Positions 28,551 through 63,591 of a DNA stretch of 64,000 bases are shown here, one piece after another. Below the pieces are notes generated by a model that ran no database searches, was not told the DNA's origin, and was given only the letters and a program-made list of their open reading frames with translations. Position 1 is the first letter of the stretch. Each line of letters opens with the position of its first letter. This DNA comes from a bacterium (GTDB lineage: Bacteria > UBA8248), in the NCBI GenBank assembly GCA_965204535.1, contig OZ241996.1, positions 896,001 through 960,000 on the forward strand, read 5' to 3'. A program made the position numbers and the translations under genes.

Positions 28551-28803
28551 GGGGTGTTGGAAAGTCATGATGAAGGAGGGGTTTGTTCCGTAGGGGCCGT
28601 TCGCGAACGGCCTTTGCCGGAGAAACGGGCGCTTCACGAAGCGCCCCTACGACACCCTTCTGGAGAATCTCACAACGTCCCTCATCCCGAGTAGGCCCGC
28701 AAGGGCCGTATCGAGGGACGCCGGAAAATAGCCCCTGCATGAAAACCAACCCCCCCTACCCCCCCTTGACAGGGGGGTAAAAAAAGAAAACCCCCCGACA
28801 AGG
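28551..28803. repeat. Mixed palindromic repeat cluster 1
   Basis: Degenerate MITE end 28551-28566, GTAG-REP doublet 28590-28650, CCTCATCCCGAGTAG..GTATCGAGGG hairpin 28676-28720, C7-TA-C7-TTGACA-G6 unit 28748-28778. Confidence 0.8.
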
Positions 28804-28910
28804 AAGCAAGGGGTTCAACGCCGAAAGTTGCCCCTCATGAGGAGGCATGGCCAATCGGGCATGGGGTTCCCGTTTTTCACATATCGGTGCGGAAGCGCGG
28901 GGGAGGGGAT

Positions 28911-29660
28911 TCAGACGAGCAGAAGCCGTATCGAACCTCCCAGGGCGATGCTCAGAACGCACAGGTTGAACGTGCGCCCGCTGAGCCTCTCCTGCACCCA
29001 TGCACCGGCCTTGATGCCCAGCCACAGGACGGGCAGGCCGACTACTGTCGCCCAGATGGTGTCCCAGGTGACGACGGATACCTGCCAGAAGGCGACCACC
29101 TTGATGGGGTTGAACACCGCGTAGAGCATCCATATCGTGCTCACCAGGGTGAGTTTTTCGAGTCGCTGGCTGATGAGGACGGGGGTGAGGAAGATCGCCC
29201 CGCTGTTGGCGAGTGCCGAGCAAAGCCCGCTCATGACGCCGAAGCCCCCGCCCTGCCACATCGGCAGGGGAGGGATATCGAAGGGTCTGCCCCTGATTTC
29301 CACGAGTGCCTGGTAGGCGGCGAGGGAGAAGCAGATGGCGCCGATCAGCATTTTCAGCCCCGCTCCCGGGAGCCAGGTGAGCAGCCAGACGCCCAGGCCG
29401 AGCCCGACCACGATGCCGGGTGCTAAGAGGAACACGTAGCGCAGGTTCCATTTTCCCCAGAAATGGGGCGCCGACCCCAGGCCCGACCAGCAGCTGAACA
29501 TCGCGATGAGGCCGAGCGAAAAAGAGGGCGAGAACGCGAAGATGAGGAACGGCGTGATCACCAGGCCCACGCCCGCCCCGAACGTGCGCACCAGAAAGCC
29601 GTTGCAAAACGCCGCTGCGAGGACGAAGCTCCACTCGACCCAGGTGAAATCCGGCATCAC
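28911..29660 (-). CDS. TauE/SafE family (sulfite exporter-like) membrane protein
   Basis: ~8 TM segments, 'GFLVRTFGAGVGLVITP', 'GVMSGLCSALANSG'. Confidence 0.82.
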   Translation of the reverse strand: MMPDFTWVEWSFVLAAAFCNGFLVRTFGAGVGLVITPFLIFAFSPSFSLGLIAMFSCWSGLGSAPHFWGKWNLRYVFLLAPGIVVGLGLGVWLLTWLPGAGLKMLIGAICFSLAAYQALVEIRGRPFDIPPLPMWQGGGFGVMSGLCSALANSGAIFLTPVLISQRLEKLTLVSTIWMLYAVFNPIKVVAFWQVSVVTWDTIWATVVGLPVLWLGIKAGAWVQERLSGRTFNLCVLSIALGGSIRLLLV

Positions 29661-30406
29661 TGGTTCGATTCCAGCAGAAGGCGCAGGGCGGTGATGAGGG
29701 ATAAGAGCAGGAGGATGTAGGTGAATCCTTTCTGGGGGATTTTATGGAGCGTCTGCTTGCCGCACCAGCTTCCGGCCCATGCGAGGGGAAAGGCGAGCGC
29801 GCCCGCCACGAGCATGGGCGTCTGCACGACGCCCCCGTACCACAGCGAAGCGACCTTGAAGGGGTTCACGCAGAACCAGACGACGAGGATGCTCGCCACT
29901 ATCGCCGTTTTCGACATGCCCTGGCTGACGAAGAACAGGCTCAGCACGAGGCCGCCCGAGTGGAACATGGCGCTGATGATGCCGCCGCCTACACCGATGC
30001 CCACCCCCGCCGGGAGGCTGATGGGCGGGGGCTTCATCTCGCCGCGCGCCTCGCGCCAGAAGAGCAGCACGGCGAAGAGGACGCAGGTCAAGCCGATCCC
30101 CTTTCTCAGCCAGAAATCGGGCAGGGTCACCAGCCAGTAGACGCCGATGATGATGCCGATGTAGAAGCCGGGCACCAGGTAGCGCAGGAAGCGGCTCTCC
30201 CACTGCTTCCAGAACATGGGGATGGCGAAGAAATCAGTCACCCACATGATGACGGCCACGATGCCGATGATGAACCGCGTGGGCCAGAACATGATCATGA
30301 TCGGAACGAGAAGGATGCCGATACCGGAACTGAAGGTGGTTTTCAGAAAGCCGACGAAAAAGGCGGTGATCCCGAATGCGAGAAGTTGATGCGCCGTGTA
30401 GTCCAA
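29657..30406 (-). CDS. TauE/SafE family membrane protein
   Basis: 'VGFLKTTFSSGIGILLVP', 'GGIISAMFHSGG'. Overlaps the next gene (GTGA). Confidence 0.82.
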   Translation of the reverse strand: MDYTAHQLLAFGITAFFVGFLKTTFSSGIGILLVPIMIMFWPTRFIIGIVAVIMWVTDFFAIPMFWKQWESRFLRYLVPGFYIGIIIGVYWLVTLPDFWLRKGIGLTCVLFAVLLFWREARGEMKPPPISLPAGVGIGVGGGIISAMFHSGGLVLSLFFVSQGMSKTAIVASILVVWFCVNPFKVASLWYGGVVQTPMLVAGALAFPLAWAGSWCGKQTLHKIPQKGFTYILLLLSLITALRLLLESNQ

Positions 30407-30552
30407 AACGTCCCCTGCAAGCCTTTGACGAAAAGTAGCGCCAGCTTAGCGATTCGGGGGGCCGGGAACAAGGGCGGGGCGGGTTCGCGCGGTTGTTGAG
30501 TAAGGCGTTGTCAAGGGAGCGAACGTTCCCTCTCCGGTCGGGTTCGACGCCC

Positions 30553-30893
30553 ACCCCCCTTGTCTACGGGCATCGCCTTTTTATACTCCCCTGACAAGGG
30601 GGGGTAGGGGGGGTTGGTTTTCAGGGCGAGGAGGGGGTGCCGAATCTGTTTTTGCCGGAATGACGACGGGGTGTGGGGCTGTTGAAAAAGCCCAGTGGAG
30701 CGATTTTGGTTGAGCGCGCGCCTTTGATGTTCACTCCCCCCTTGAGGGGGAGTCGATGAAGCCGAGCGATTTGTGCGAAGGCTGAATCGGTGGGGGGTAA
30801 AATGCGTTTTATCGCCATTCCGAATTATCCCCCCACCGGTTCGCCTGCGGGCTACGCCCTTGGCTCACCGACTCCCCCTCAAGGGGGGAGTGG
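30553..30893. repeat. Mixed palindromic repeat cluster 2
   Basis: G/C-run unit 30553-30616, GCCGGAATGACG half-site, MITE end 30675-30690, ACTCCCCC-TTGA/TCAA-GGGGGAGT doublet 30732-30892 homologous to 49676-49838. Confidence 0.85.
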
Positions 30894-30948
30894 ATGTTGA
30901 GCGCTCTGCAAGAGCGGGGCGGGGCGGTGCCGACCGAAGCGGCCGGAT

Positions 30949-30977
30949 TTGCTCTTTCGGCGTATTATGGGGATAAT
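30949..30977 (+). promoter_or_regulatory. Putative sigma70 promoter of the dctPQM operon
   Basis: TTGCTC-17 nt-GATAAT about 110 nt upstream of dctP. Confidence 0.45.
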
Positions 30978-31089
30978 TTCGATATCCGGCGTATGACAAT
31001 GGTTTTCTCCAGGCCGGGCGTCCCCGATCGTTTCGGAGACGCCCGGGGGAGGATGGGTTGATGACTCGTCATTCAGGAGGAGGTGTTCG

Positions 31090-32076
31090 ATGAAATCGTT
31101 GAGAACCGGTTTTGCGATCGTAGCGCTCTTGGTCGGGATGATGATCCTCGCGACCGCCGCCGAGGCCGCGAAGGTGAAATTCACGCTCGGCACGACGAAC
31201 AGCACCAAGGAGTTCAGCGTGCAGGCCATGCAGCGCTGGGCCGACGCCATGCGGGCGCGCTCCAACGGCGAACTCGACATGCAAATCATCGCGGGCGGCG
31301 CCCTGGGCGGCGACAAGCAGCTGCTCCAGCAGTTGGGGACGAACGAGATTCAGCTGCACGTGGCGGGCCCCGTCGTGGTCCACCACCTCGTGAAGGAATA
31401 CCAGTGCATGGAGGCCGAGTTCGTCTACAAGGACGGCAACCACGGGCTCAAGGTATGGAACGGGCCGCTCGGGAAAGAGGTGAGCGGCGTCCTCCAGAAG
31501 AAGCACAACATCCGGATCGTCGGCGTGGGACACCGGGGCGCGCGGAACCTCACCTCGAAAGTACCCGTCAAGAATCCGTCTGACATGAAGGGCATCAAGG
31601 TGCGCATCACCAACAAGCTGCGCCAGCGCGTGTTCAAGGCGTTCGGGGCGAACCCCGTGCCGATGTCGTTCAAGGAGCTCTACGGCGCGCTCCAGACCGG
31701 AACGGTCGAGGCGCAGGAAAACCCGCTCGGCACCATCTACGGGTCGAACTTCTTTGAAGTGCAAAAATACCTGAACCTCACCGGCCACGTCTGGAGCTAT
31801 TTCGTCGTGTCCGGGAACAACGGGTTCTACAAGGGACTGAGCGCCGGCCACAAGAAAATCTTCGACGAGGAAGCGAAGAAGGCCATCGACTGGATGACGG
31901 ACGCCGTCTGGAAGTCCTTCGCCGACGTCGAAGCCAAGCTCAAGGCCAAGGGGATGACGGTCGTCAAGCCCAACGTCGCGGCCTTCAAGAAGATCGCCGA
32001 GCCGATCGTCCAGAAGTTCGCGAAGGAAAGGTGCCGGCCCGGACTGCTCGAGGACATCGCCAAACAGGGGATGTAG
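31090..32076 (+). CDS. dctP: TRAP transporter substrate-binding protein (DctP family)
   Basis: Signal peptide, 'GGALGGD', 'DMKGIKVR', 'GANPVPMSFKELYGALQTGTVEAQENP'. Confidence 0.93.
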   Translation: MKSLRTGFAIVALLVGMMILATAAEAAKVKFTLGTTNSTKEFSVQAMQRWADAMRARSNGELDMQIIAGGALGGDKQLLQQLGTNEIQLHVAGPVVVHHLVKEYQCMEAEFVYKDGNHGLKVWNGPLGKEVSGVLQKKHNIRIVGVGHRGARNLTSKVPVKNPSDMKGIKVRITNKLRQRVFKAFGANPVPMSFKELYGALQTGTVEAQENPLGTIYGSNFFEVQKYLNLTGHVWSYFVVSGNNGFYKGLSAGHKKIFDEEAKKAIDWMTDAVWKSFADVEAKLKAKGMTVVKPNVAAFKKIAEPIVQKFAKERCRPGLLEDIAKQGM

Positions 32077-32092
32077 CCGCTTTTCCGCTCAA

Positions 32093-32134
32093 CCCCTCCG
32101 GCGCCTCGTGATCGATTTCGCGGGGCGCCGGGGG
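32093..32134 (+). terminator. Stem-loop between dctP and dctQ (attenuating or mRNA-stabilising)
   Basis: CCGGCGCCTCGTGA...TCGCGGGGCGCCGG hairpin followed by a T-rich run. Confidence 0.5.
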
Positions 32135-32184
32135 TTTCTCGAGGGTTTTCTCCTCATTCTATCCATGCGGGGGGTTCGGGGTTC

Positions 32185-32700
32185 GTGACTTCCAGGTCGC
32201 CTAGGCCATTGTTGCGGAACGTGACCTATATTGTCACGGGCGTCGCCCTCGTAGGCTTCTGCGGAATGCTCCTCTCGACATGGGCGCAGATTCTCTTCCG
32301 AAAACTCGCGATATCGGTCGACTGGACCGAAGAGCTGGCAAGAATCCTCTTTATCACGAGCGTGTTCCTGGGCATCGCCATCGGCGTCGCCGAAAAACGC
32401 CACATCGTCGTGGATTTTCTCCTGAACCGGCTTCCGCCGCGCCTCCGCGCCCTCGTCGGGATGCTGTTCAACGCCGTCATCCTCGTTTTCCTGATTTTTC
32501 TGCTGCGGGGTGCTGCGGCGATGGTTTCCGTGACCTGGGAATCCTACATGATAGCCATCTCCTGGCTGCGCACCGGGTATCTCTACTTCATCGAGTGCGT
32601 CGCCATCGTGCTGACCATCCTGTACGTTCTCTACGGATTCGGGGAGAGCTTTAAGGCTTTTCTGTCTGGTTCTGGCGATGCGGAAGAAGGCGCCGAGTGA
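32185..32700 (+). CDS. dctQ: TRAP transporter small permease
   Basis: 4 TM segments, 'WTEELAR', 'HIVVDFLL'. Confidence 0.92.
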   Translation: MTSRSPRPLLRNVTYIVTGVALVGFCGMLLSTWAQILFRKLAISVDWTEELARILFITSVFLGIAIGVAEKRHIVVDFLLNRLPPRLRALVGMLFNAVILVFLIFLLRGAAAMVSVTWESYMIAISWLRTGYLYFIECVAIVLTILYVLYGFGESFKAFLSGSGDAEEGAE

Positions 32701-33998
32701 TGGTCGCCTACGCCTTTCTGGCATTCGCTCTCGTCATCCTGATCATGCTGGGCTTTCCGGTGGGATTCGGGGCGGGCACCGTATCCATGATAGGGGCGGG
32801 TTATTTCTTCGGCGATTTCCTGGACCCGCGCACCTCTTCGATGATCGCCCGCCTCGCGTTCGCCAAGATCAACAACTTTCTCCTGCTGGCCATCCCGTTC
32901 TTCCTCCTGACCGGCCGGCTCATGAACGTGGGCGGAATCACCGAGCGGCTCTTCGGCTTCGTGAGCGTCGTGTCGCGCCCCCTGAAGGGGGGCCTCGGCC
33001 ATGCGAACGTGCTGGCGAGCATGATCTTTGCGGGCATGTCGGGTGCCGCGACGGCGGACGCCGTCGGCCTCGGCACGGTGGAGATGCGCGCCATGCTGCA
33101 GGAGGGCTACGACCGCGAATTCAGCTCAGGCATCACGGCGGCGTCTTCGCTCATCGGCCCCATCATCCCGCCGAGCATCCCGCTCGTGGCCTACGGCGTC
33201 ATCGCGGAGGAATCCATCGGCTCGCTGTTCCTGGGCGGCGTCATCCCCGGCACGCTGATGGCCATCGCCTTCATCATCTACGTGAGCTACCGTGCCCGCA
33301 AGGGCAATTACCCCTCGGGATCGATGGCGGGAATCCGCGAACTCCTCGTTTCCTTCCGGAACGCCTTCTTGCCGCTGATGACGCCCGTCATCATCATCGG
33401 CGGCATTTACGGGGGCATCTTCACCCCGACCGAGGCGGCCGCCGTCGCGGCGTTCTACGCCATGGTGCTGGGGCTGCTCTTCTACAGGGAGTACGGCTGG
33501 CGCCACCTGCTGCGCGAGATCAAGGGCACGATGATCGACACGGCCGTCATCATGCTGGTCATCGCCTTCACCTCGGCCTTCGGCGTGGTGATGATTCGGG
33601 GGCAGGTGCCCGACGCCCTGGCCGCCCTGATCACGCAGATATCCAGCGACCCGACGGTGCTGCTGTTCCTGTTCACGATATTGTGGATGATCGTCGGCTG
33701 CTTCATGGCGGAGACGCCCGCCATCCTCATCCTGACGCCGATTCTGCTGCCCACGGCGGAGAAATTCGGCATCGACCCCATTCATTTTGGCGTCGTCATG
33801 ACGGTCGCCCTGACGATAGGCCTCTTGACGCCGCCCGTCGGCATGGTGCTCTACGCGCTCATCCCCGTCACGGAACTGCCCTTCGAGCGGCTGGCCGTCC
33901 TGGCGATCCCCTACATTCTGCTCTCGCTCATCGTCGTCGCCCTGACGATCGTCTTCCCCGAACTCGTGCTCTGGCTCCCGCGGGTGGTCATGAGCTGA
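32697..33998 (+). CDS. dctM: TRAP transporter large permease
   Basis: 'LLAIPFFLL', 'GPIIPPSIP', 'GIFTPTEAA', 'GLLTPPVG'. Confidence 0.95.
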   Translation: MMVAYAFLAFALVILIMLGFPVGFGAGTVSMIGAGYFFGDFLDPRTSSMIARLAFAKINNFLLLAIPFFLLTGRLMNVGGITERLFGFVSVVSRPLKGGLGHANVLASMIFAGMSGAATADAVGLGTVEMRAMLQEGYDREFSSGITAASSLIGPIIPPSIPLVAYGVIAEESIGSLFLGGVIPGTLMAIAFIIYVSYRARKGNYPSGSMAGIRELLVSFRNAFLPLMTPVIIIGGIYGGIFTPTEAAAVAAFYAMVLGLLFYREYGWRHLLREIKGTMIDTAVIMLVIAFTSAFGVVMIRGQVPDALAALITQISSDPTVLLFLFTILWMIVGCFMAETPAILILTPILLPTAEKFGIDPIHFGVVMTVALTIGLLTPPVGMVLYALIPVTELPFERLAVLAIPYILLSLIVVALTIVFPELVLWLPRVVMS

Positions 33999-34026
33999 GG
34001 TAGGAAGGGTTTGGGTAGGCGAGAGC

Positions 34027-34374
34027 GCGGGATTCCACTGTAGGGGCAGACCTGCGTGTCCGCCCATTTTTCGTTATAGCGGGTGCAGGGCGGATACACG
34101 GGTCCGCCCCTACGGGTTGATGCGGTTTTGACGTGAGAATGGTTGACGTTCGTAGGGACAGGCCCCCGTGCCTGTCCTGTATTGGGGTGAATACGCCCGA
34201 CGGGCGGCCACGGGGGGCCGCCCCTACGATGGTCATTCGAGGGGGTGTGTAGGTCGGACATATATGTCCGACATATTATGCGACCCGCATTGTGAAGGCG
34301 AAAAGGACGGGCCGCATGTATGCGGCCCCTACAGTGGCATCCCGCCAGAGTGGCAAGGGGTTTTCAACAACCCC
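34027..34374. repeat. GTAG-REP cluster 3, ending in a MITE right end
   Basis: GTAG..CTAC units at 34040-34113, 34152-34227 and 34249-34332. Outer extended IR gcgggattccactgtagggg / cccctacagtggcatcccgc. ggggttttcaacaacccc at 34357-34374. Confidence 0.85.
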
Positions 34375-34386
34375 GTACGCCCGGCC

Positions 34387-34644
34387 CTAGAACGTGGTGA
34401 CGCCGCCCTCGATCCCGAACAATCTGGGTATCAGGCCGTGGAAGTAGTAGACGTCGATCAGCACCAGGGCGAAAAACACCGCGATGAAGATGAGGATCAG
34501 GCCCGCGATGAAACACGGTATCTGGGCGATGGCTTTGAAGACGCCCGCGATGCTGCCTTTTCGCAAGGGATAGCCGCAGTGCGGGCATGTCCTGGCTTCG
34601 GTGCTCAGGAGCCCCCCGCATTCGGGGCAGTTGAGAAGCGACAC
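34387..34644 (-). CDS. Zinc-ribbon membrane protein
   Basis: 'LLNCPECGG..STEARTCPHCGYP' plus one TM segment. GTG start directly after the upstream stop. Confidence 0.75.
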   Translation of the reverse strand: MSLLNCPECGGLLSTEARTCPHCGYPLRKGSIAGVFKAIAQIPCFIAGLILIFIAVFFALVLIDVYYFHGLIPRLFGIEGGVTTF

Positions 34645-34645
34645 C

Positions 34646-36592: not shown

Positions 36593-36612
36593 GGCTTTTC
36601 CTCGGGTGGTTA

Positions 36613-37473: not shown

Positions 37474-37510
37474 TGAACCGTCTCCTTAGGGATGTCTATT
37501 GTCCCTTTCC

Positions 37511-42210: not shown

Positions 42211-42229
42211 GGGTATCCTTTCTGAATGT

Positions 42230-42820
42230 GAGTTATTGAAAAATCCCGTGCGGCGTGAGCTAAACCTCTCTCCCTCCTCAGAATCACCCCCCCCTACCCC
42301 CCCTTGTCAGGGGGGCAAGAAAAAACAAAAGCCCTCCTGACAAGGGGGGGTAGGGGGGGGTGCCTTTATCCCCTGACAAGGCGACCGGGGGTTGCTCCCA
42401 AGGAGTTTTCCCGTCCATGGGCCTTTTTCAACAATCCCTTTGCGGGTCGGGCATCCTCCACCGGGGAGAACTCCAAATCACTCCCCCCTTGGGGCTTGTT
42501 GAAAACTCTTCATCGGGCGGATCTCTTGTGTGTAGGGGTCGCATACATGCGACCCGGCCTTTTTGCCTTCCAACGACGGGCCGCATGTATGCGGCCCTAC
42601 ACTCCTTTCGCCAAGGCGGAATCCCGTTGCTGTCATTCCGGCATTGCAGGACTTTTTTAACAGCCCCCCTCAAGGGGGGAGTGGATTTCCCCTACTCCTT
42701 GTTTGGCAAAACCCTTAAGTGGTCAAACCCGATGAAGAAAGAACCCGTAGGGACAGGTCGCGACCTGTCCCTACAAAACCTGCAACCCTCCTTCGTTGTA
42801 TTTTTCCAACAACCCCCTCA
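42230..42820. repeat. Mixed repeat cluster 4: two TIR-bounded MITE units plus a REP and a solo end
   Basis: Unit 42230-42438 (G/C-run cargo), unit 42491-42667 (GTAG-REP cargo, nested in an ACTCCCCC hairpin), perfect 28-bp palindrome 42747-42774, solo right end 42801-42816. Confidence 0.85.
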
Positions 42821-48532: not shown

Positions 48533-49489
48533 TTAGTCGTAGATTTCCGGATTGGCGAGCGAGGTGACTTTCTCACCCTCCACCGCCCGCTTGATATTAT
48601 CGCACAAAAGCTTGTAGCTCTCACGCTGGACGCTTTCGGTCTGGGCGGCGTTGTGGGGCGACATGACGACGTTGGGAAAACCGTTCAGCGGATGATCCGC
48701 AGGCAACGGGTCCGGCTCGACCACGTCGAGGCCTGCGCCCGCGATTTTGCCCTCGCGGACCGCGTCGGTGAGCGCATCGGTATCCACGTGGGGGCCGCGC
48801 GATACGTTGACGAGAGAGGCCGTCTCCTTCATCAGGTCGAATTCTTTTTCACCAATCATGCCCGTGTTCTCGGGCGTCAGGGGCAGGGTGAGGACAAGGA
48901 AATCGACGCGCGGGAGGAGTTCGTGGAGCGTCTTCACCTCTTCCACCTCGAAGCCCTCGGGCTGGAACTTCCCCCGCGTGCGCGTGTAGGCGCAGATTTC
49001 CATCTCGAAGGCGGCGGCGCGCTTGGCCAGCGCTTGGCCGATGTTCCCGAGACCCACGATACCCAGCGTCGCGCCCTGAAGCTGGAAGTGGAGTTTGCGT
49101 TCTCCAATCGGCCAGAGCCAGGGCCTTCTGGCCATGATGAGGGTGAGCGCCATGGCGTGCTCCGCCACCGGGATGCAGCGCATCCAGCCGGGCGCGTTGG
49201 CGACGGGGATGCCGAGTTCGGTGGCTCCCGCCAAGTCGATGTTGTCCACGCCGGTGCCCACCTTGCCGACCACCTTGATATCCGGCCCCGCCTCCATCAT
49301 CTCCCGCGTGATGGGGGCGAACCCGGTAGTGAGCGCGCACGCGCTCTCGGCCTCCTTGAGCAGACTCGCGTCGTCGAAGGATTCCGGCTCTACGAACTCA
49401 TAGCCCTCGTGCAGGTATTCCACCATGAAGGCCTTGCGGGCGGGCTGTGTTTTCGTGCGCTCATCCACGCTCAAGACGCGGTGTGTCAT
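48533..49489 (-). CDS. D-isomer-specific 2-hydroxyacid dehydrogenase
   Basis: 'GTGVDNID', 'GIVGLGNIG', 'VNVSRG', 'GAGLDVVEPDP', 'SPHNA'. Confidence 0.92.
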   Translation of the reverse strand: MTHRVLSVDERTKTQPARKAFMVEYLHEGYEFVEPESFDDASLLKEAESACALTTGFAPITREMMEAGPDIKVVGKVGTGVDNIDLAGATELGIPVANAPGWMRCIPVAEHAMALTLIMARRPWLWPIGERKLHFQLQGATLGIVGLGNIGQALAKRAAAFEMEICAYTRTRGKFQPEGFEVEEVKTLHELLPRVDFLVLTLPLTPENTGMIGEKEFDLMKETASLVNVSRGPHVDTDALTDAVREGKIAGAGLDVVEPDPLPADHPLNGFPNVVMSPHNAAQTESVQRESYKLLCDNIKRAVEGEKVTSLANPEIYD

Positions 49490-49621
49490 TTTGATGATTT
49501 CCTCCATTGTGTCGGTGCATCATGGGAATGTGGAAAAAGCTCCCTCAAGCCGGGGATGGATTTATCAATCGACATACGTTTATGAAATGGCTTCCTCTTG
49601 GGGTTCATTGCGCCCCCTGAA

Positions 49622-49873
49622 GGGCCGTTGAAAAGTCGCGCGGAGCGATTTTGGTTGGCGCAAGTTTTTGAATTTCACTCCCCCCTTGAGGGGGAGTCGA
49701 GGAAGCCGAGCGGTTTGTGCGAAGGCTGACTCGGTGGGGGGTGAAATGCGTTTTATCGCCAGTCCGAATTATACCCCCCACCGAATCGCTTTCGGGCTTA
49801 CGCCCTCAGCTCTTCGACTCCCCCTCAAGGGGGGAGTGAAATTCCTCTCTCCTCGGACTTTTTCAACAACCCC
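49622..49873. mobile_element. MITE-like unit carrying an ACTCCCCC-hairpin doublet
   Basis: Ends gggccgttgaaaagtc / ggactttttcaacaacccc. Interior colinear with 30675-30892. Confidence 0.8.
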
Positions 49874-49877
49874 GTCA

Positions 49878-50507
49878 TCATGATGGCTGGCCGAATTTCT
49901 CTTTCGCGTCCGCCATGCTCGAAACGCCGGGCCGCCAGGCGGGGGGCGGGTCGGCCTCGTCGCGCGAGAATCCGTCGCGCTCAAGCCTGTCGCGGAACCA
50001 CGCCTCGTTTATGCGGTTGGTGTCCGCGTCCATTCTGGCCAGGTCGCAGAAAATCTCGATCCCGTTTCCGCACGGGTCGTGAAAATAGAAGGCGCGGTTC
50101 TCGCCCAGGGTGCCGTCGCCCTCGGGGTGCGTGGGGCTGTGGACGAGCGGCCCCGCCGCGACCCTGATTCCCTTCGAGCGGATGTGCGCCGCCCAGGCTT
50201 CGAGTTCTTCCTTGGAGCCGACCTCGAAGGCCACGTGGTGGAGGCCGACTTCGGGTTTTCGCATGCCGCCCTCTTTGGGTGTCAGGCCGGCTTCCTTGGG
50301 ATAGGCGATGAGGGATACCTCGTGATGGCCCTCGCCGCAGCGCATGAAGCATATCCCCCACGGGCTGTGGGGATTGTCGCCCGACTCGTAGCGGTCCGAC
50401 ACCCGGAGCCCCATGACGTCGCGGTAGAAGGCCACCGCCTCGTCCAAGTCGTGGACCTTGAGACCCACGTGCTGGATGCGCCTGAGAGCGGGAGGAGCTT
50501 TGCTCAT
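49878..50507 (-). CDS. VOC family protein (extradiol dioxygenase-like single domain)
   Basis: 'IQHVGLKV', 'HHEVSL', 'GLHHVAFEV', 'FYFHDPCGNGIEIF'. Confidence 0.88.
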   Translation of the reverse strand: MSKAPPALRRIQHVGLKVHDLDEAVAFYRDVMGLRVSDRYESGDNPHSPWGICFMRCGEGHHEVSLIAYPKEAGLTPKEGGMRKPEVGLHHVAFEVGSKEELEAWAAHIRSKGIRVAAGPLVHSPTHPEGDGTLGENRAFYFHDPCGNGIEIFCDLARMDADTNRINEAWFRDRLERDGFSRDEADPPPAWRPGVSSMADAKEKFGQPS

Positions 50508-54351: not shown

Positions 54352-54444
54352 GACCTCCGGCCGCCCGCGCGGCGAACGCGCAGGTCCGCTCCTGTGCGAA
54401 TAATCCCCCACACGCCTCACTTTCAAGGGGACAGTCCCCACATG

Positions 54445-55358
54445 CCTCACCCTGAGTAGCGGCGGAGCCGCGTATCGAAGGGCGCTCCCCTCGCCGCCGG
54501 GAGAGATGGCTCGGCATCCATCCTTCGATACGACCCTCCGGGTCTACTCAGGATGAGGCGGGGGTGGCCCTTCGGGTCTGCTCGGTAATGAGGGTGGCTT
54601 GTTTGACGGGGCCGGGGGATGAGGTTGCATGGAGTTGTTTATAGGGGCCCGCATGGGGCTGTTGAAAAAGTCCGAGAAGAAATGAACCACTCCTCCCTGA
54701 GGGGTTGTTAAAAAAGGCCCGATAAACGAGGGTTCGATGCAACCGACGAGAAGAAAGCCTGTGGGGGCCGTTCGCGAACGGCCCCTACGCCGCCTCGACC
54801 CGTAGATCGTCGTCATTCCGGCGCATGCCGGAATCCAGGGACTTTGTTTTTGAATTTGCTTTTTCGCTTTATCGTTTTTCTTGGTCTTCCTGTGACTCGG
54901 TATCCCCGTCTGCTCTGGATTTCGGCTTTCGCCGGAATGACGGTGGTTTTCCCGCATTGAGGGGCTTTTTCAACAACCCTTGAGGGAACAGCCTCCCATG
55001 CCTCACGCTGAGTAGCGGTCGAAAGTAAAACGCGACTGAGAAGGGGTTGTTGAAAAAGTCCACCGAGGAGGGAGGGAATCCCGATCATCGAATTGTTCAT
55101 CGTAGGGACAGGCCTCCGTGCCTGTCCGAAACCCTGCGCCTGTCCTCATGAAGGACAACCACGGAGGGTTGTCCCTACGGGCTCGATCCCAATGAATGCG
55201 AAATGGTTTCACCCGTAGGGGCGGCCCCCCGTGGCCGCCCGTATCGGAAATATCGGTCCCCGTGGTTGCGCTTCACAGGGACAGGCACAGGGGCCTGTCC
55301 CTACCCTCCGATGGTTCCTTTCGCTAAATCATGATGTCAGGACTTTTTCAACAACCCC
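54445..55358. repeat. Mixed repeat cluster 5 (largest)
   Basis: CCTGAGTAG..TATCGAAGG doublet 54445-54559, solo MITE end 54655, MITE unit 54701-54979 (GTAG-REP plus GTCATTCCGGC..GCCGGAATGAC doublet), MITE unit 55043-55358 (two GTAG-REP doublets) flanked by GAGAA direct repeats. Confidence 0.88.
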
Positions 55359-55535
55359 GAGAAAGGAGCGTTTGTATCGAAGGGCGCGCTACTGGTCGCC
55401 TTGCGGGGAGCGGTCCCGGAAGAAAGAGCATTTTCTGCCGATGTGTGATAAGGAATAGGGGATCGGAACAATCCATTGTCCATTTTTTGAGATAACGACG
55501 AGGCGCACGGCGCCCCAATTCGATGGGAGAAGAAG

Positions 55536-56516: not shown

Positions 56517-56547
56517 CCGCCGTATCGCGGTCGCCTGGTGAACCCAC

Positions 56548-56973
56548 ATGAATGAAGACGCGATTCAGCCGGGAATCGAGGGGACGTATTCCGTCGTCGT
56601 GGCGGATGAGCACGTGCCCCTGCACCTCCGCGGTACGAACGCAGAGGTGGTGGCGACGCCCGAACTGGTGCGCTTCATGGAAAAGGCCGCCATGGACGCG
56701 CTGGCGGCGCACCTGGGGCCTGATGAGACGAGCGTGGGGACGAAGGTTTCGCTCACCCACATGGCGGGAACGCCCAAGGGGATGCGGGTTAAGGCGCGGG
56801 CGCGGCTGGTCGAGCGTGACCGCAGGCGCTGCACCTTCGAGGTGGAGATACATGACGAGGTCGAACTCGTCGCCCGGGGGACGAACGAGCGCTTCATCGT
56901 GCCCCGTGAGCGCAAGAATGAAAAACTGATGCAGAAGATAGAAAAAGTAAATAAACAAATACAAAACAGTTAA
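56548..56973 (+). CDS. Hot-dog thioesterase (FlK-like)
   Basis: 'VVATPELVRFMEKAA', 'SVGTKVSLTH.AGTPKG', 'RGTNERFIV'. Confidence 0.85.
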   Translation: MNEDAIQPGIEGTYSVVVADEHVPLHLRGTNAEVVATPELVRFMEKAAMDALAAHLGPDETSVGTKVSLTHMAGTPKGMRVKARARLVERDRRRCTFEVEIHDEVELVARGTNERFIVPRERKNEKLMQKIEKVNKQIQNS

Positions 56974-57009
56974 ATAACACATATAATTCATGTGATTTCA
57001 AGGAAAGAC

Positions 57010-58182
57010 ATGGACGGGCTGGAAGGAATTCGGGTGCTGGACCTCACGCATTACGTGGCGGGGCCGTTCTGCACGCTGATGATGGGGGACGCGGGCGCGG
57101 ACGTGGTGAAGCTCGAACCGCCCGAGGGCGACCGCGTGCGGAATTTTCCGTCTTCCTTCGCCGGAGAGAGCAGGCTGTTCCTGGGGCTGAACCGCAGCAA
57201 GCGCAGCCTCGCCCTGAATCTGCGGGCGGAGCAGGGCAGGGAGATCGCCAAAAAACTGGCCGCGCAAGCCGACGTGTTCGTAGAGGGCTACCGCCCCGGC
57301 GCGGTCGAGAAGTTCGGCCTCGGCGCGGACGCCCTGATGCGCGAAAACCCCCGTCTCATCTATCTCTCGGTCTCCGCCTACGGGCAGGGCGGCCCCCTGC
57401 GCGAACGGCGAGGCATCGACCCCATCATCCAGACCACGGCCGGCATTCCCGCCGAGCAGGGCGGGGGCGGCGCGCCCGAACTCGTGCAGGGTTCTTTCGT
57501 GGACTACATGACGGGCGCGCTCGCGTACGGCGCGGTGATGATGGCGCTCTACGTCCGGGAGCGCACGGGCGAGGGCCAGCGGGTCGACGCATCGCTCCTG
57601 GGCGGGGCGACGGCCATGCAGTTCGGACGCCTCATGTGGGCGAGTGATTCAGAGCCCGTCTCGGAGGTGGAAGACGCCCTGAACGACCGCATCGCCCGCG
57701 TGTATGAAGTCTCCGACGGCCATATCTATCTCTACATGGACGTGGACGGCTTCTGGGAGAAATCCTCAGAAATTCTGGGTCTTCCCGAACTGCTCGAAGA
57801 AGAGGCCTGGCGGACCTTCCGGGGAAGGCACGATGCGAGAGGCGTCATCATCCCCCTGGTGCAGGAGGTTCTGCGCACGGCGCCGGGCGAGGAATGGGTG
57901 CGCAAGTTCGAGGGCGAGGGCGTGCCCTGCGCACGCGTGCGAAAGCCCACGGATCTGTATGAGGACCCGCAGATGAAGGCGATGGGCTATCTGGCGCGGG
58001 CCGAGCATCCCGAATACGGGGTGTTGCAGCTCGGCGGCGTGCCCGTGAAGTTCGACAAGACGCCCTCTTCGGTGCGCAGGCCGCCGCCCGTGCTCGGCCA
58101 GCATTCCGATGAGGTGCTGCGCGAACTCGGCTTATCAGTTGAGGAAATTGCCGCTCTCAGGAGGGAGGACGTCGTCCGCTAG
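57010..58182 (+). CDS. CoA-transferase family III (CaiB/BaiF)
   Basis: 'LEGIRVLDL..VAGPFC..MGDAGADVVKLEPP.GD', 'NRSKRSL', 'PPPVLGQH'. Confidence 0.93.
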   Translation: MDGLEGIRVLDLTHYVAGPFCTLMMGDAGADVVKLEPPEGDRVRNFPSSFAGESRLFLGLNRSKRSLALNLRAEQGREIAKKLAAQADVFVEGYRPGAVEKFGLGADALMRENPRLIYLSVSAYGQGGPLRERRGIDPIIQTTAGIPAEQGGGGAPELVQGSFVDYMTGALAYGAVMMALYVRERTGEGQRVDASLLGGATAMQFGRLMWASDSEPVSEVEDALNDRIARVYEVSDGHIYLYMDVDGFWEKSSEILGLPELLEEEAWRTFRGRHDARGVIIPLVQEVLRTAPGEEWVRKFEGEGVPCARVRKPTDLYEDPQMKAMGYLARAEHPEYGVLQLGGVPVKFDKTPSSVRRPPPVLGQHSDEVLRELGLSVEEIAALRREDVVR

Positions 58183-58320
58183 CGGATTTTACTTTCGAGT
58201 CGGGTGGATTGACCGAAGAATGTCGACGCGCTCGGTATTCCGCCCGAATCCAGGACAGATAAATTTCCCGGCGAAACTTCTTTTTGCCATTTTCATCAAA
58301 CATCAAACGTGGAGAGTAAA

Positions 58321-59541
58321 ATGATTCGCAGACTACGCACCGAAAGAGACAACCAGCAGTGGATGCTCGACCTGGCCCTGAACATGAGGGGCCGCGTCCA
58401 GAACTTCGAGCGCGATTACTTGGAAGTCCCCCAGGGCAAGCGCGCCCACAACTACCAGATGCTGCCCAAGGTCTGGCGCGAGTCCGCGGAATTTCACGAG
58501 ACACTCGGCAAGAAGGCCCAGCGAGAGGGGTTCGACGCCACGGCCACGGAGCACTACGACCACGCCATCGAGGCCTACCGCATGGCGCAGCACCCGATCT
58601 TCTACGACGACAACCCGGTGAAGATCTACCTGTGCAACAAGCTGAAGGAAATGGTCGACAGGCGCTCGGAGACGGCGTCTTATCCCATCGAGCGCGTCGA
58701 GGTGCCCTTCGACGACGGCAAGACGATCTCCTGCCTCCTGCACCTGCTTCCCGACCGGAGAAAAGCGCCCTGCATCATCTACGTGCCGGGCATGGATCAG
58801 AGCAAAGAAGTATTCCCCCACGCGCGGCACAACGTGGCGGCGGACAGGGGCTTTCACGTCATTGCGATGGACGGTCCGGGGCAGGGCAACTCCAACATCC
58901 AGAAGATCCGCGCCGTCGGCGACAACTACGAGCGCGCGGGTGCTGCGGTGATGGACTACCTCCTCGGGCGCGAGGAGGTCGAACCCACCAAGATCGGCAT
59001 CTACGGCATCAGCATGGGGAGCTTCTGGTCGCTCCGCCTGGCGAGCTACGACCACCGGGCGGCGGCGGTGGCGAGTGCGGTGGCGTGTTTCAACCCGAAC
59101 AACACCATCTTCACGCAGTCCTCGCCTCGCTTCAAGCAGGTGTTCATGTACATGGCGGGGATGGACGATGAGGACGCGTTCGACGAGATGGCGCGCAACA
59201 TGACCGTCAAGGGCTATATGGACAAGGTGCAGTGCCCCACGCTGCTCGTGACGGGCGAATTCGACCCGCTCTGCCCGCTCGAGGACGCCATCGAGGTGTA
59301 TGAGGATTTGACGTGCAAGAAGGAGATGTGGGTGTTCGAGAACCAGTTCCACCCCCTCGTGAACCTCTCGAACCTGGGCGGCGTGGACAACCACCAGTAC
59401 ATTCTCGACTGGCTGCACCGCGCCCTGATAGGCGAGAGCGTAAGCGACGACCGCATCGCCTACGTCAAGGAGAACGGCGACGGCCCCTTCGGCGAGTGCG
59501 AGTGGACGCCGCCCGTAAGGCCCGGCGAGGTGTATTTCTAG
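58321..59541 (+). CDS. Alpha/beta hydrolase, 2,6-dihydroxypseudooxynicotine hydrolase/FrsA-like
   Basis: 'IERVEVPF', 'PGMDQSKE', 'DGPGQG', 'GISMG', 'GEFDPL'. Confidence 0.85.
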   Translation: MIRRLRTERDNQQWMLDLALNMRGRVQNFERDYLEVPQGKRAHNYQMLPKVWRESAEFHETLGKKAQREGFDATATEHYDHAIEAYRMAQHPIFYDDNPVKIYLCNKLKEMVDRRSETASYPIERVEVPFDDGKTISCLLHLLPDRRKAPCIIYVPGMDQSKEVFPHARHNVAADRGFHVIAMDGPGQGNSNIQKIRAVGDNYERAGAAVMDYLLGREEVEPTKIGIYGISMGSFWSLRLASYDHRAAAVASAVACFNPNNTIFTQSSPRFKQVFMYMAGMDDEDAFDEMARNMTVKGYMDKVQCPTLLVTGEFDPLCPLEDAIEVYEDLTCKKEMWVFENQFHPLVNLSNLGGVDNHQYILDWLHRALIGESVSDDRIAYVKENGDGPFGECEWTPPVRPGEVYF

Positions 59542-59646
59542 GGGGAGCCGAGAGGCGGGGAACTGAGCGTTACTCCGCTGTCTTGATGGGTTTTTGGGGT
59601 TCACTTCCCTCTTGAGGATTGTTGCCGACCGAGGAGAGAAGAAATT

Positions 59647-59981
59647 CACTCCCCCCTTGAGGGGTCTGTTGAAAAACCCCTCGTCGGGGGGGATGTTGCC
59701 TTTGGCGGGAAGGCCGCTTTCGCGCGAACCCCCGACCTCCTTCGTCGAAAACCAACCCCCCCTACCCCCCCTTGACAGGGGGGTATAAAAAGACGATGCG
59801 CCCCCGCTAGGCTGAGGGGTTTGCCTTTTCTTACCCCCCTGTCAAGGGGGGGTAGGGGGGGTTGCTCTTTTAAGGAAGGTTTTTTCTACAACCCTCAAGG
59901 GGGGAGTTTATCTTGCTCCCTTGCGAACATTGCGGGAAGGATTGCGTTTTATAGGTAGCGCTCCCTTCTTGGGAGCGCTAC
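59647..59981. repeat. Mixed repeat cluster 6
   Basis: MITE unit 59661-59894 with G/C-run doublet cargo, nested between cactccccccttga and tcaaggggggagt. GTAG palindrome 59955-59981. Confidence 0.82.
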
Positions 59982-59994
59982 AGACATGCGGCCC

Positions 59995-60042
59995 TTAAAG
60001 ATGGCCGGGAGAGGAAAGGGTGGCCTCAAGAACGACCCGCAC
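59995..60042 (-). pseudogene. Truncated PIN toxin (first five codons only)
   Basis: GTG CGG GTC GTT CTT GAG = 'VRVVLE', overlapping the RHH gene end like MRVVLDTN PIN toxins. Stop after 15 codons. Confidence 0.55.
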
Positions 60043-60262
60043 GCGCGGCGTCCACTTCCTCGTCGATTAGATCGAGGAGGTCCTGCTGGTCAAGTCGGGC
60101 GTTGCGCTCCTTGACCTGGCTGACGGTGAGTTCCAAAACGCGGCGTCGCACGGCTTCATCCACGAAGCGGGAGAGGTCTCCTTTCTTGCCGCCGTTTCGC
60201 GCAAGAAAGGTTCGGACCGCGCGGTCGGTTTCTTCGGGGATGGAAAGGTTCCATCGGGTCAT
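60026..60262 (-). CDS. Ribbon-helix-helix antitoxin-like protein
   Basis: 'TRWNLSIPEETDRAVRTFLA..GGKKGDLSRFVDEAV'. RBS AGGAG. Confidence 0.85.
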   Translation of the reverse strand: MTRWNLSIPEETDRAVRTFLARNGGKKGDLSRFVDEAVRRRVLELTVSQVKERNARLDQQDLLDLIDEEVDAARAGRS

Positions 60263-60408
60263 GGGCCAGTCTCCTGCGCATATGCACATAAGCGCATACA
60301 CACCTATCTTATCGAAACTTGGTTCTCTCCGTCAAATTTCCGCCTGCTGAATGATCTTGGCTTCCCGCGGCCCCGGCGAGGTGTATTTCTAGGGGTGATC
60401 AGAGGCGG

Positions 60409-60798
60409 TTACCGGACTCTCGTAACATATCTGCCCACCCGAACCGTGCGGTCGGGCGTCAGTGTGACTTCGAGAACCTGACCGGCGAGGTCGACCTCCG
60501 CCAATTGAACCAGGGCGTGCTCGAACAGCTTCGTTTGGACGTTCAAGCTCATGAGCCCGTGCGCTACGTTGATGCAGACGAGACCGGGGTGGCCGCGCTC
60601 CCGTTCCATGAGCGACGTGAAATCCACTGCGTCGTTCGTCACGAGCACAAATCCGTCTCGAATGGCACGCCGGACGAGGAGCCAGTTCTTTCGGGACCTC
60701 AATCCGATCCAGTTCACGTGCGTCGATTCCGGAAACCCCCGTTTCCGGGCGATGGCCGCGAGCGCAGGGCTCAGGCATTCGTCGATGAGAAACTTCAC
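60409..60798 (-). CDS. DUF5615 family PIN-like toxin
   Basis: 'KFLIDECLSP', 'VLVTNDAVDF', 'HPGLV'. GTGA overlap with the DUF433 gene. Confidence 0.85.
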   Translation of the reverse strand: MKFLIDECLSPALAAIARKRGFPESTHVNWIGLRSRKNWLLVRRAIRDGFVLVTNDAVDFTSLMERERGHPGLVCINVAHGLMSLNVQTKLFEHALVQLAEVDLAGQVLEVTLTPDRTVRVGRYVTRVR

Positions 60799-61418
60799 CG
60801 GCTCGGAGGCAATTCCCGGAAATCGACCTCGCTCGATATGACCGGTTTTCGGCTGCGCCAGAAGGGTCCTTGACGGGGGCGGCCGCGGCGCGGGTAGGCC
60901 CGGGCATAGAGGGCCGCGGCTTCGATCTGGGCTTCCACGAGGGAGGGGTAAGCCGCGCGGACGGCGTCCACGCCGTCGCCGCCAGCGAGCATTTCGGCGA
61001 TATCGTGAACGGGTATGCGGGTTCCCTTGATGCACGCTGTACCGGAAAGTACGGCCTCATCGGACGCGATCATCTTGCGCGCCCTCGCCAGCCTGGAAAG
61101 CCCTCTGCGCACTTGGCCCTTCATGGGCCGCACGTCGACGGACACGTTGTTCTCACGGGCCGTCCCGGCCTTCGGATTCTCGAGAAGATAGCGCACGAGC
61201 CGACGGCGTCCGTCGAGGGTGAGGGTGTCCGTCGTCTCGTGGGCGAGCTTGAGGCCCACCAGGCCGTCGTAAAGGATGAAGCGGGAGCCCTTTTGGCTTT
61301 CCGCGGCGGCGCCCAGAAGGCCCGAGTCGATGATGCGGTGCACCTGTTTCAGAGGTACGCCGGTGACACAGGCCGCCTCGTTCGCCGACATGGCCCGGTC
61401 CGCAATGCCAGTCGCCAT
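60795..61418 (-). CDS. DUF433 domain antitoxin with N-terminal HTH
   Basis: 'VLSGTACIKGTRIPVHDIAEML..G....V..AYPSL...QIEAA..YA'. Confidence 0.88.
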   Translation of the reverse strand: MATGIADRAMSANEAACVTGVPLKQVHRIIDSGLLGAAAESQKGSRFILYDGLVGLKLAHETTDTLTLDGRRRLVRYLLENPKAGTARENNVSVDVRPMKGQVRRGLSRLARARKMIASDEAVLSGTACIKGTRIPVHDIAEMLAGGDGVDAVRAAYPSLVEAQIEAAALYARAYPRRGRPRQGPFWRSRKPVISSEVDFRELPPSR

Positions 61419-61658
61419 TATCTTTCCTCCATTCTGGAAAGAATATAGCCCATCGTGGATCAAAATGCCAGCCCGCTTACGCCGTGGGCCGGCTCCCTGA
61501 CCCTGGCCAAGACGAAGAGGGATATCGGATCTGCATGAGGCTCCAGAACATATGAAAGGAACTGGCCGTCCCGCCGGACACTTCACGCAACGCGGGCGGC
61601 GCTTTTCGCTCGCCTGGTGTAGAATCCCGCGAAACCGGACGTTTCACGGGAGGCGCGC

Positions 61659-62174
61659 ATGTTTTCTATCGCCCTGATAGCACTGCTTTTGCCGCTCGTT
61701 CCCGCCGGAGGCGCGTCCGCCGCACAGCCCGTCTCCGAGTGCAACCCGGCGATGGTCGGCGAGTGGATTTGCGGGGAGATCCGGTACCTGAAAATATCCT
61801 TTGAGGTGGGTGAAGACGCGATTACGAGAGTGACCTTCGTAGACGCTTCGGTTTCCGGAGAGGGGCGCGGGCGCAAAACGCACACGGAAATCGTGGACGG
61901 GAAGGTCCATGCTCTTGAGAACGGCGCCCGGTACGCCTCTTCGTGCAACCATAGAATCGGCCCGAGGGGCCATAAAATTTATCGACGCGCCGCCCGGGAT
62001 GATACCACCGGAAGGGTTCTCATCGGGGATTACATCGTCCTGGAAGACGGGCGAATGCTCATCGGCCTGTTCGGCGATGGAAAGATGGAAGGCTACGATG
62101 TCAAGAATTCCTCCAGGCCGAACGAGCCGGACCACATCGTCGAGTGCATCAGGTGTAAAAAAACCGGCTGTTGA
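61659..62174 (+). CDS. Hypothetical secreted protein
   Basis: RBS GGAGG, signal peptide 'ALIALLLPLVPAGGASA'. Confidence 0.65.
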   Translation: MFSIALIALLLPLVPAGGASAAQPVSECNPAMVGEWICGEIRYLKISFEVGEDAITRVTFVDASVSGEGRGRKTHTEIVDGKVHALENGARYASSCNHRIGPRGHKIYRRAARDDTTGRVLIGDYIVLEDGRMLIGLFGDGKMEGYDVKNSSRPNEPDHIVECIRCKKTGC

Positions 62175-62287
62175 GGCCTTGCCGGCCGGATCGATTCTGC
62201 CGTTTGGCGGCGCGGCGACTATCGCCCGGGTGAACGCGCAAGCGGCGTGCGCCAAGTGAGTCAGCAAGCCTAACCCTGGAGAATTTC

Positions 62288-63163
62288 TTGAACCCCTTGC
62301 TGGCTTCGTTCTTCGCGCTCGCCTCCTCAGTGCTGTTCGCCGTCTTCAGCGTCATGGCGCGAAGGTACATGCGCTACACGAGCGCCTTCACGGGCAGCCT
62401 CATCACGCTGAGCATCGGCACGGTGGTTCTGGTCGCGATCTCGGCCTTTCTTTCCCCGTGGAGGGAGCTCACGCTGCCGGTCGCCCTGTGGTTTCTGGCG
62501 GGCGGTGCGCTCGCGCCCGGATTGGCGCAGGCGCTCATGTTCCTGAGCATCGGTTATATCGGGGTGGGCCGCGCCATGCCGCTCATCACGGTGACGCCTT
62601 TTTTCTCCACCCTCGTGGCGATGGCCTGGCTCGGCGAGCGGCCGGGCGTCGTGGTCCTGGCGGCGACGCTCTTCGTCGTCGCGGGATGCGTCCTGCTGGC
62701 GCTCAGGAGAGAAGGCGAGAAACCCTGGCGGCGGATTTTCATCCTCATGCCGATGGCGCACGCCGTATCGTTCGCCTTCGCCGCGTCCATCAGAAAACAC
62801 GTGCTCGCCCTCATGCCCGAACCGCTGCTGGGCGCCACGCTTTCCTATGCGATCTCCATCCCCGTGCTGTTCGTGTTCTATCCCTTCCTGCCCGAAGACG
62901 AGCGGCTCTCCTTCAACCGCGCGGGCGTGAAGGGGTTCGCGGTGGCGGGCTCGATTCTCACGCTTTCTTTTTTCTGCCATTTCACGTCGTACCGCTACGG
63001 GGACGTGTCGATCATCGCGCCCATCGTGTATACGGCGCCGCTGTTCTCCCTGCTGCTCGCGCGGATATGGCTCAAGGGGGAAGAAGAGATTACCTGGCAG
63101 AAAACGGTGGGCGCGGTCTTGTTGTTCATCGGGATGGTGGTGATCATCTGGCAGGCGGCGTGA
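62288..63163 (+). CDS. DMT/EamA family transporter
   Basis: 10 TM segments, 'GALAPGL', 'PFFSTLVAMAWLGER', 'GDVSIIAPI..TAPLF'. Confidence 0.88.
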   Translation: MNPLLASFFALASSVLFAVFSVMARRYMRYTSAFTGSLITLSIGTVVLVAISAFLSPWRELTLPVALWFLAGGALAPGLAQALMFLSIGYIGVGRAMPLITVTPFFSTLVAMAWLGERPGVVVLAATLFVVAGCVLLALRREGEKPWRRIFILMPMAHAVSFAFAASIRKHVLALMPEPLLGATLSYAISIPVLFVFYPFLPEDERLSFNRAGVKGFAVAGSILTLSFFCHFTSYRYGDVSIIAPIVYTAPLFSLLLARIWLKGEEEITWQKTVGAVLLFIGMVVIIWQAA

Positions 63164-63201
63164 GGCCTGCGGGCGCGGACGAAAAACGAGGTATGCATAA
63201 T

Positions 63202-63591
63202 CACTCCCCCCTTGAGGGGGTTGTTGAAAAAGCTCCTGAGAGGGGAATGGCAACCCCTTGAAAGGGAAACCACATAAAGGCAACCCCCCCTTGTCAGGGG
63301 GGTAAAAAAGCGACGCCCGCCGCCGGTTCGCCAATCGTCGGTTGAGGGGCTTTTGTTTTTTCTTGCCCCCCTGACAAGGGGGGTAGGGGGGGGTGCTCCT
63401 TTGGCTAAGGTTTTTTCAACAGCCCCTCCCCGGTCGGCATTGATTGCCGGAATGACGAGCAATAGCGGTATCCACATTGTAGGGGCGGTGCGCGAACCGC
63501 CCCTACGGGGCCACGGGGAAGCGTATTCCGGGGTTAAGGTATAAGAACAGGCGCGCTCGCACAGTAGGGACAGGTCGCGACCTGTCCCTAC
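63202..63591. repeat. Mixed repeat cluster 7
   Basis: cactccccccttga followed by MITE unit 63217-63426 (G/C-run doublet cargo), GCCGGAATGACG half-site, GTAG palindromes 63479-63506 and 63564-63591 (identical to 42747-42774). Confidence 0.85.

Follow-up and report, generated by a model that had tools for sequence, protein, structure and literature searches.

Non-autonomous IS1182 elements whose ends stay in place while the hairpin cargo between them is replaced, probably through recombination of end copies

The window analysed here is a stretch of 64,000 nucleotides (C1:896001-960000; contig C1 is GenBank OZ241996.1) from a UBA8248 bacterium whose genome (assembly GCA_965204535.1, here G000) comprises 4.56 Mb in two contigs at 60% GC. 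Between positions 28550 and 63426 the window holds 18 ends that match GGGYTGTTGAAAAA with at most two mismatches. These ends are terminal inverted repeats (TIRs) of an insertion sequence (IS) of the IS1182 family, and between them lie short non-coding units filled with hairpin repeats of several kinds, including repetitive extragenic palindromes (REPs). Comparison with related genomes points to non-autonomous IS1182 elements in which the ends stay put and the enclosed hairpin cargo is replaced, probably when two end copies recombine; we consider this reading probable, though well short of certain.

Ends and units in the window

The units are listed in Table 1. Three degenerate ends (28550, 30489 and 49524) likewise face cargo repeats, and another four matches to GGGYTGTTGAAAAA with three mismatches fall in coding DNA and were taken as chance. 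A preliminary description of the window had reported eight stretches with such ends and interiors, and all eight are present with coordinates within 1-2 bp. It had also paired ends into seven units; their ends and interiors are as described, although several are nested or half-collapsed parts of two larger shells (42229-42816 and 49524-49873). The GAGAA direct repeats that it placed around one unit are a perfect 5-bp match on either side of 55043-55358.

Empty sites in related genomes (numbered with the prefix G), which the same description had proposed to look for, were found for 42229-42816 (locus C), 49524-49873 (locus A), 55043-55358 and others. Locus C is empty in G022, G008 and G004, and its outer junctions recur identically in G011, G013 and G016 with other cargo. 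Locus A is empty in G022 and G007, and a G/C-run doublet stands behind the same left end in G002, G012 and G016. For 55043-55358, a single-copy empty site is seen in G003, both junctions are common to G011, and the right junction is common to G002, there behind different cargo. The locus of 59662-59895 carries an uninterrupted ACTCCCCC doublet in G002 and G016, and G002 is missing 63217-63426 along with the sequence around it.

Short-read contigs of run X2 agree with 48600-49689 and 49815-50400 with zero differences (no contig extends across the whole unit), so the two junctions of 49524-49873 covered by this run are not assembly errors, and an assembly artefact was ruled out for them. Contigs of runs X4 and X5 end at 49546, close to the inner edge of the old end; such a stop is no proof. 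Runs labelled as sponge metagenomes contain relatives at 93-94% identity. A search of 28000-64000 against Rfam gave zero matches, i.e. no known structured RNA.

Table 1 Ends and units in the window (positions within the 64,000 nucleotides).
Feature	Positions	Strand
Lone degenerate left end facing GTAG, ATCCCGAGTAG-type and G/C-run repeats	28550-28568	+
Degenerate left end (older shell), upstream of the end at 30675	30489-30507	+
Left end with ACTCCCCC doublet; right end not found	30675-30892	+
Lone right end behind a cluster of GTAG-REPs	34356-34374	-
Locus C shell: outer ends 42229 and 42816, inner right end 42438; cargo a G/C-run doublet	42229-42816	
Nested GTAG-REP unit within a ACTCCCCC palindrome inside the locus C shell	42492-42667	
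Locus A shell: old degenerate left end 49524, nested left end 49621, ACTCCCCC doublet, single right end 49873	49524-49873	
Additional left end, 46 bp ahead of the unit at 54701	54655-54673	+
Unit with GTAG-type REP and CGTCATTCCGGC doublet, in a degenerate ACTCCCCC palindrome	54701-54980	
GTAG-REP unit with perfect GAGAA duplication	55043-55358	
G/C-run doublet unit between the two loops of a ACTCCCCC doublet; TTGAG left, CTCAA right	59662-59895	
G/C-run doublet unit; left flank a ACTCCCCC half-site	63217-63426	

Ends and units across the genome

At a tolerance of one mismatch, 531 ends were found in G000, 262 of them exact. Contig C1 alone contains 79 exact ends and 187 with up to one mismatch, compared with 0 and 5 in an equally long order-5 Markov sequence. 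Adjacent ends mostly face inward and lie 150-500 bp apart. The genome-wide scan with pairing that the preliminary description had proposed gave 168 units of inward-facing ends at spacings of 40-700 bp. These 168 units fall into 111 interior clusters, the largest with 15, 9, 9 and 8 members and 96 of them singletons. Left and right linkers recombine (50 combinations among 92 units), and in 164/168 units a scan allowing one mismatch found one or more of seven repeat words.

By arrangement there are 113 simple pairs, 41 three-end clusters and 4 fully nested clusters, and six end-end tandems are separated by 5 to 9 bp. Unit length showed no significant helical phasing (Rayleigh test at 10.4 bp, p 0.12 for all 155 and p 0.085 for 98 cluster representatives), nor was the best period within 8-14 bp significant (p 0.125 and 0.43). 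Of the 22 genomes of the genus, 16 are rich in the end motif; no other genome searched has more than two copies. At C1:164400-170000 (L005), an array of three IS1182 copies alternates with short units.

Ends persist while interiors change

The main pairwise comparison set 1.6 of the 4.39 Mb of G002 against G000, using BLAST anchoring in flanks that are about 94% identical. An end followed by a cargo word occurs 137 times in this part of G002; 52 cases were excluded (flank homology ended early in 28, the sequence was repetitive in 19, and 5 had no orthologue), leaving 85 testable ends. At 74 of these the end is kept at the orthologous site in G000, and at 11 it is not. Behind the 74 common ends, the interior is the same in 37 cases, different in 32 and partially shared in 5.

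Independent insertions were modelled as ends drawn at random from the pool. Among ends with different interiors, a non-consensus TIR base is common to both genomes in 8/18, compared with 0.80 under this null (reached in 0 of 20000 draws). In a second 800 kb of G002, which served as a replicate for this test, the corresponding count is 4/14 against 0.60 (p=0.0006). Ends with the same interior share such a base to a similar extent (8/18 and 6/19). The breakpoint of similarity falls 15-22 bp from the end in 33/74 cases and is otherwise spread from 28 to 300 bp. Most new interiors (27/32) have a relative behind another end, in a register within 1 bp in 23 cases. Where both ends of a shell could be followed (18 shells), both sides had changed in 7 and one side in 5.

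Individual loci show the same pattern over more genomes. At locus C, six genomes have both outer junctions in common around four kinds of content; the G/C cargo is found in G000, G012 and G020, which indicates on the host-gene tree that it was replaced separately in G011, G013 and G016. At locus A, an odd left end, GGGAATG, is common to seven genomes with at least three interiors. There, G011 has two right ends (uncollapsed), and G000 has lost the intervening segment, which is also present in G012, G013 and G016.

The ends usually persist while the interior is replaced, and this is the dominant process, over capture and carrying away. The preliminary description had envisaged a MITE family (MITE, miniature inverted-repeat transposable element) that captures and disperses cargo. 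Mobile copies do exist, but in-place replacement of the interior, at 32/74 ends, prevails.

The partner element is an IS1182

Pairs of ends about 1.51 kb apart contain a transposase of 465-481 aa that is a member of IS1182, scoring 344 bits against NF033551 (cut-off 270) and carrying the domains DUF772, DDE_Tnp_1 and DDE_Tnp_1_6. Residues D145, D260 and E387, which we take to be catalytic, are each at least 95% conserved among 40 homologues. The suspicion that the ends were of a DDE type, IS5- or IS1182-like, was correct: they are IS1182 TIRs, and the cognate intact IS is present in 24 full copies, all 24 with an open frame of at least 460 aa, besides two interrupted copies. Its TIR is 19 bp long, GGGGCTGTTGAAAAACCCC. 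An exact 5-bp duplication was detected by script at 13/24 full copies and by eye at 2 more, where the script had chosen the wrong right end; the remaining copies have hybrid flanks, compatible with replacement or later recombination.

All 24 full copies lie in half-sites of C-run/loop/G-run palindromes, of the ACTCCCCC or the G/C-run type, and two of them adjoin the end of a short unit. For 23/25 pairs spaced 1.49-1.53 kb (24 of which are the IS), an enclosing end lies within 600 bp, which indicates that short units carry the target of the IS. The units spread cargo palindromes, of two types, that IS1182 itself targets, and many short units likewise lie in the loops of these palindromes. All 9 IS sites that could be tested are unoccupied in G002, suggesting that the IS copies are young. 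IS DNA is present in 15/16 end-rich and 0/6 end-free genomes of the genus, although kin are not independent. Only 4 other IS-derived fragments were found in G000, all short and diverged.

Distant homologues have the same end, with an exact 5-bp duplication at 47 of the 59 loci (of 80) at which both ends were found. None of these 59 loci has a C-run flank, so the targeting of ACTCCCCC and G/C-run palindromes is a property of this lineage. At 31/59 loci, these relatives from public genomes (L147-L226) have a small set of flank motifs in common. One such flank (L164) translates as the C-terminal part of another transposase, which resembles IS256 in a motif, and the homologue P0074 carries PF00872. 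This suggests that outside the genus, relatives of this IS1182 insert site-specifically into IS256-type genes. A second IS1182 in G000, of 494 aa and with different ends, splits two copies of the first at different positions (L003, C2:2822405-2825708; L004, C2:1234262-1237565).

Mobility of the short units

Exact 5-bp duplications flank 23/168 pairs, compared with 3.0 expected from shuffling, and another 21 pairs match with one mismatch. For simple pairs with non-REP flanks, the counts are 10/68 against 0.6 (exact) and 22/68 against 4.1 (up to one mismatch). Empty orthologous sites occur in G022, G008, G004, G007, G003 and G002 (e.g. C2:260778 is empty in G002), and no TIR-like sequence was seen inside those examined. 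A 296-bp unit is present in two copies at different loci, with interiors 100% identical and a perfect duplication at one of them. Short units and IS1182 also have genus-level co-occurrence, target and duplication length in common. From these features we infer that the short units would be mobilised in trans by the cognate IS1182 transposase.

Hairpin targets at non-REP sites are weak at best: the mean is -3.9 compared with -3.35 +/- 0.28 kcal/mol for shuffled partners, and a spanning stem is present at 0.50 compared with 0.45 of sites (n=30). One larger pair, at C1:1142486-1143980 (1.49 kb), has inward ends around a 280-aa gene and matching 5-bp flanks. In G002 the left end alone is present, with the gene at the same place, and the pair is probably not a moved cassette.

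Cargo repeats and their native genes

Each cargo repeat also occurs beside nuclease-like genes. Doublets of ACTCCCCC flank DUF559 genes, arranged as arrays around a second DUF559 type in G002 and G011 (L082, L083), and G/C-run doublets flank other DUF559 genes (L084, L085). In L085 (C2:1233602-1233919), an IS1182 copy sits in the repeats on each side of the gene. A literature search found no paper tying DUF559 to such repeats. Repeats of CGTCATTCCGGC flank a GIY-YIG gene (L093), and CCTGAGTAG repeats flank GIY-YIG genes at L092 and L097 (G011 and G014), where small genes lie between CCTGAGTAG/TATCGAAGG hairpin doublets that are distinct from the CGTCATTCC repeat type. The CGTC repeat resembles an Ssn-related motif (PMC11893778). 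GTAG REPs flank Y1_Tnp genes (L006, L079-L081). The RAYT-like Y1_Tnp protein scores 63 on NF047646, under the NCBIfam RAYT threshold of 80; the 198-aa open reading frame (ORF) at L006 (C1:983551 region) holds in-frame GTAG REP copies that lower the score of the hidden Markov model. Y1_Tnp was detected in 10/22 relatives.

By eye, the sequence that links TIR to cargo looks like that natively flanking the nuclease-gene repeats. Of the exact cargo words, 47% to 76% are found on the inner side of an end, no more than 400 bp away, and about a quarter to half lie outside shells. With regard to a possible independent spread of REPs ahead of the IS, five of the six end-free genomes were tested; they too are without the two doublets and have few GTAG words, and kin are not independent here either. 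No shell around an entire nuclease gene was found; at the three loci viewed, the GIY-YIG genes have only one-sided ends nearby. By these gene neighbourhoods, the cargo derives from repeat systems unrelated to IS1182.

Proposed mechanism and rival explanations

We propose that the IS1182 transposase moves short units in trans and that new units would land within old ones, either in cargo palindromes or at the inner C-run of an old end. Old and new ends would then form short direct repeats, and deletion between them, by slippage aided by cargo hairpins or by break repair primed on the TIR, would join the old outer end to the new interior. One deletion event per side would swap the entire cargo. 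A repeat family might first be captured through rearrangements beside IS copies that sit in repeats around the DUF559, GIY-YIG and RAYT-like genes; a unit at C1:270725, in which 130 bp of a diverged IS end is joined to a G/C doublet, is a possible intermediate. Forms that fit as intermediates are present: the three-end and fully nested clusters, the end-end tandems, and locus A, which is nested in G011 and collapsed in G000. In three-end clusters, the lone end shares its duplication with the outer end in 8/41 cases (control 2.6).

A number of observations weigh against this scheme. In the same clusters, the lone end shares its duplication with the inner end in 11/41 cases (control 3.9), suggesting intact nested units. 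None of the 24 full IS copies has a non-repeat host flank, though collapse should sometimes yield one; the copies may be too young. A clear before-and-after collapse was seen only once. Unusual bases at TIR positions 11-15 tend to be retained, which would need crossovers crowded at the inner edge, beyond what plain slippage would give. A duplication at up to one mismatch is retained in only 44/168 pairs, short-unit ends differ from present IS ends at positions 5 and 16, and the comparison leans mainly on one genome pair, G002/G000, from which 52/137 G002 ends were dropped. Two other candidate routes for the entry of a repeat into a shell were rejected: a solo TIR with its own duplication showed no excess over shuffles (184 lone and 336 paired ends), and the inner 4-5 bp repeat expected of inverse transposition was not found.

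Alternatively, the IS1182 transposase, alone or with repair, could nick the inner border of a resident TIR and swap the interior with that of a donor unit, leaving no lasting nested intermediate. The crowding of breakpoints at 15-22 bp and the retained mutations at TIR positions 11-15 fit such a direct exchange, as do the change at both ends of 7/18 shells and the scarcity of end-end tandems. The inner junction also forms a C-run/5-nt/G-run hairpin with stems of at least 3 bp in 230/448 cases compared with 144 in the control, and IR-targeting (IR, inverted repeat) by IS30, with conversion products, offers a precedent, though on the outer side (PMC9333248). However, no 4-5 bp repeat was found just inside both ends, 5/18 shells changed on one side, and nested and half-collapsed forms are common; this route is unlikely. 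Its fullest version is a natural cassette exchange, in which IS1182 ends between genes would be long-lived landing frames, the transposase itself would swap DNA at the inner TIR border, hairpin repeats of at least four nuclease systems would be swapped across hundreds of loci, and the element would sow its own target; we regard this picture as unlikely.

The cargo's own nucleases (RAYT-like, Ssn/GIY-YIG and DUF559) might instead move repeats into passive TIR shells, the IS1182 ends being no more than marks of old insertions. Each of the cargo families is found beside such a gene, in G000 itself or in a relative, a substantial share of cargo words lies outside shells, and Ssn cleaves single-stranded DNA near such repeats (PMC11893778). 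Yet new interiors of any family share linker and register with other copies joined to a TIR, near-identical whole-unit copies bear duplications, and the nuclease genes are patchy, as the distribution of Y1_Tnp illustrates; this explanation is improbable. It is also very improbable that ordinary MITEs re-insert at hot spots, or replace the whole resident element in the manner of IS1272, with no exchange inside a shell. IS1272, of the IS1182 family, does replace stem-loop targets and reuse them (PMC5678879; PMC4923244), and the TTGAG-unit-CTCAA flanks at 59662-59895 resemble replacement of the middle of a doublet. However, a new element would bring new ends, whereas private end mutations are shared behind different interiors (8/18 and 4/14, against 0.8 and 0.6); moreover, empty sites are without TIR-like sequence, and non-REP targets are hairpin-like at most weakly. 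Re-insertion or replacement as a general explanation is largely refuted, although it may still hold at single sites.

Relation to known systems

Each ingredient of this system is known; what sets it apart is that shell and cargo have separate histories and that the element carries its own target. It works like a type II IS1182 MITE system: type II MITEs are likewise short, non-coding and multicopy, with only the TIR common to an autonomous IS, a target duplication and empty sites (PMC10969869; PMC3184786). However, there is no uniform body here (111 clusters among 168 units), and the bodies are repeats of other systems that change at a fixed site. IS1272/TnSha1 has a transposase of the same family and inserts at hairpins, some insertions deleting the DNA between the hairpin halves (PMC5678879; PMC4923244), whereas here 5 bp of the loop are normally duplicated, the target repeats travel on derivatives of the element itself, and its short derivatives swap interiors. 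PMC3281130 and bioRxiv 10.1101/2024.06.02.596822 report a length for the IS1182 duplication and insertions accompanied by deletion. As with the REP-targeting IS of Tobes and Pareja (PMC1525189), insertion is at a constant position within extragenic palindromes; here, however, palindromes also lie between the same ends, so that the element disperses its own target.

Mobile insertion cassettes and TIME composites also have transposon ends around an unrelated passenger that is moved in trans (PMC4133298). Here the passengers are non-coding hairpin doublets at hundreds of sites with in-place turnover; a mobile insertion cassette has IS ends around a passenger gene shown to move, and the short-unit interiors are repeats. 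The cargo itself is like REPIN/RAYT, Ssn/SRM (CGTC) and TIR-flanked nuclease repeats (PMC3733652, PMC11893778), although here the repeats are enclosed by DDE-type IS1182 TIRs with 5-bp duplications, unrelated to those nucleases. IS30 reacts beside its own inverted repeat with sequence conversion (PMC9333248), but it hits the outer side and forms IR-IR junctions, whereas the switch seen here lies inside the end and leaves the outer junction intact. Our literature search, with subscription papers, supplements and ISfinder outside its scope, turned up neither REP-filled IS1182 MITEs nor an exchange of interiors at a fixed site.

These results provide evidence, from genome comparison, that REP-like repeats have a second way to spread, via a DDE transposase, and the route covers CGTC repeats, for which a dedicated transposase was reported to be missing (PMC3733652). 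A bacterial MITE is not necessarily a line of copies, its end and body having separate histories; family-based dating, annotation and REP typing would therefore mislead in such genomes. Gene-end hairpins would change at fixed sites between close species.

Other observations in the window

Positions 4789-8316 and 8204-11752 appear to be a tandem duplication of about 3.4 kb, with ORF lengths of 290 and 784 aa recurring at an offset of 3421 bp. Further along, two adjacent 636-aa ORFs (16663-18573 and 18625-20535), preceded by a 615-aa ORF, are possibly tandem paralogues.

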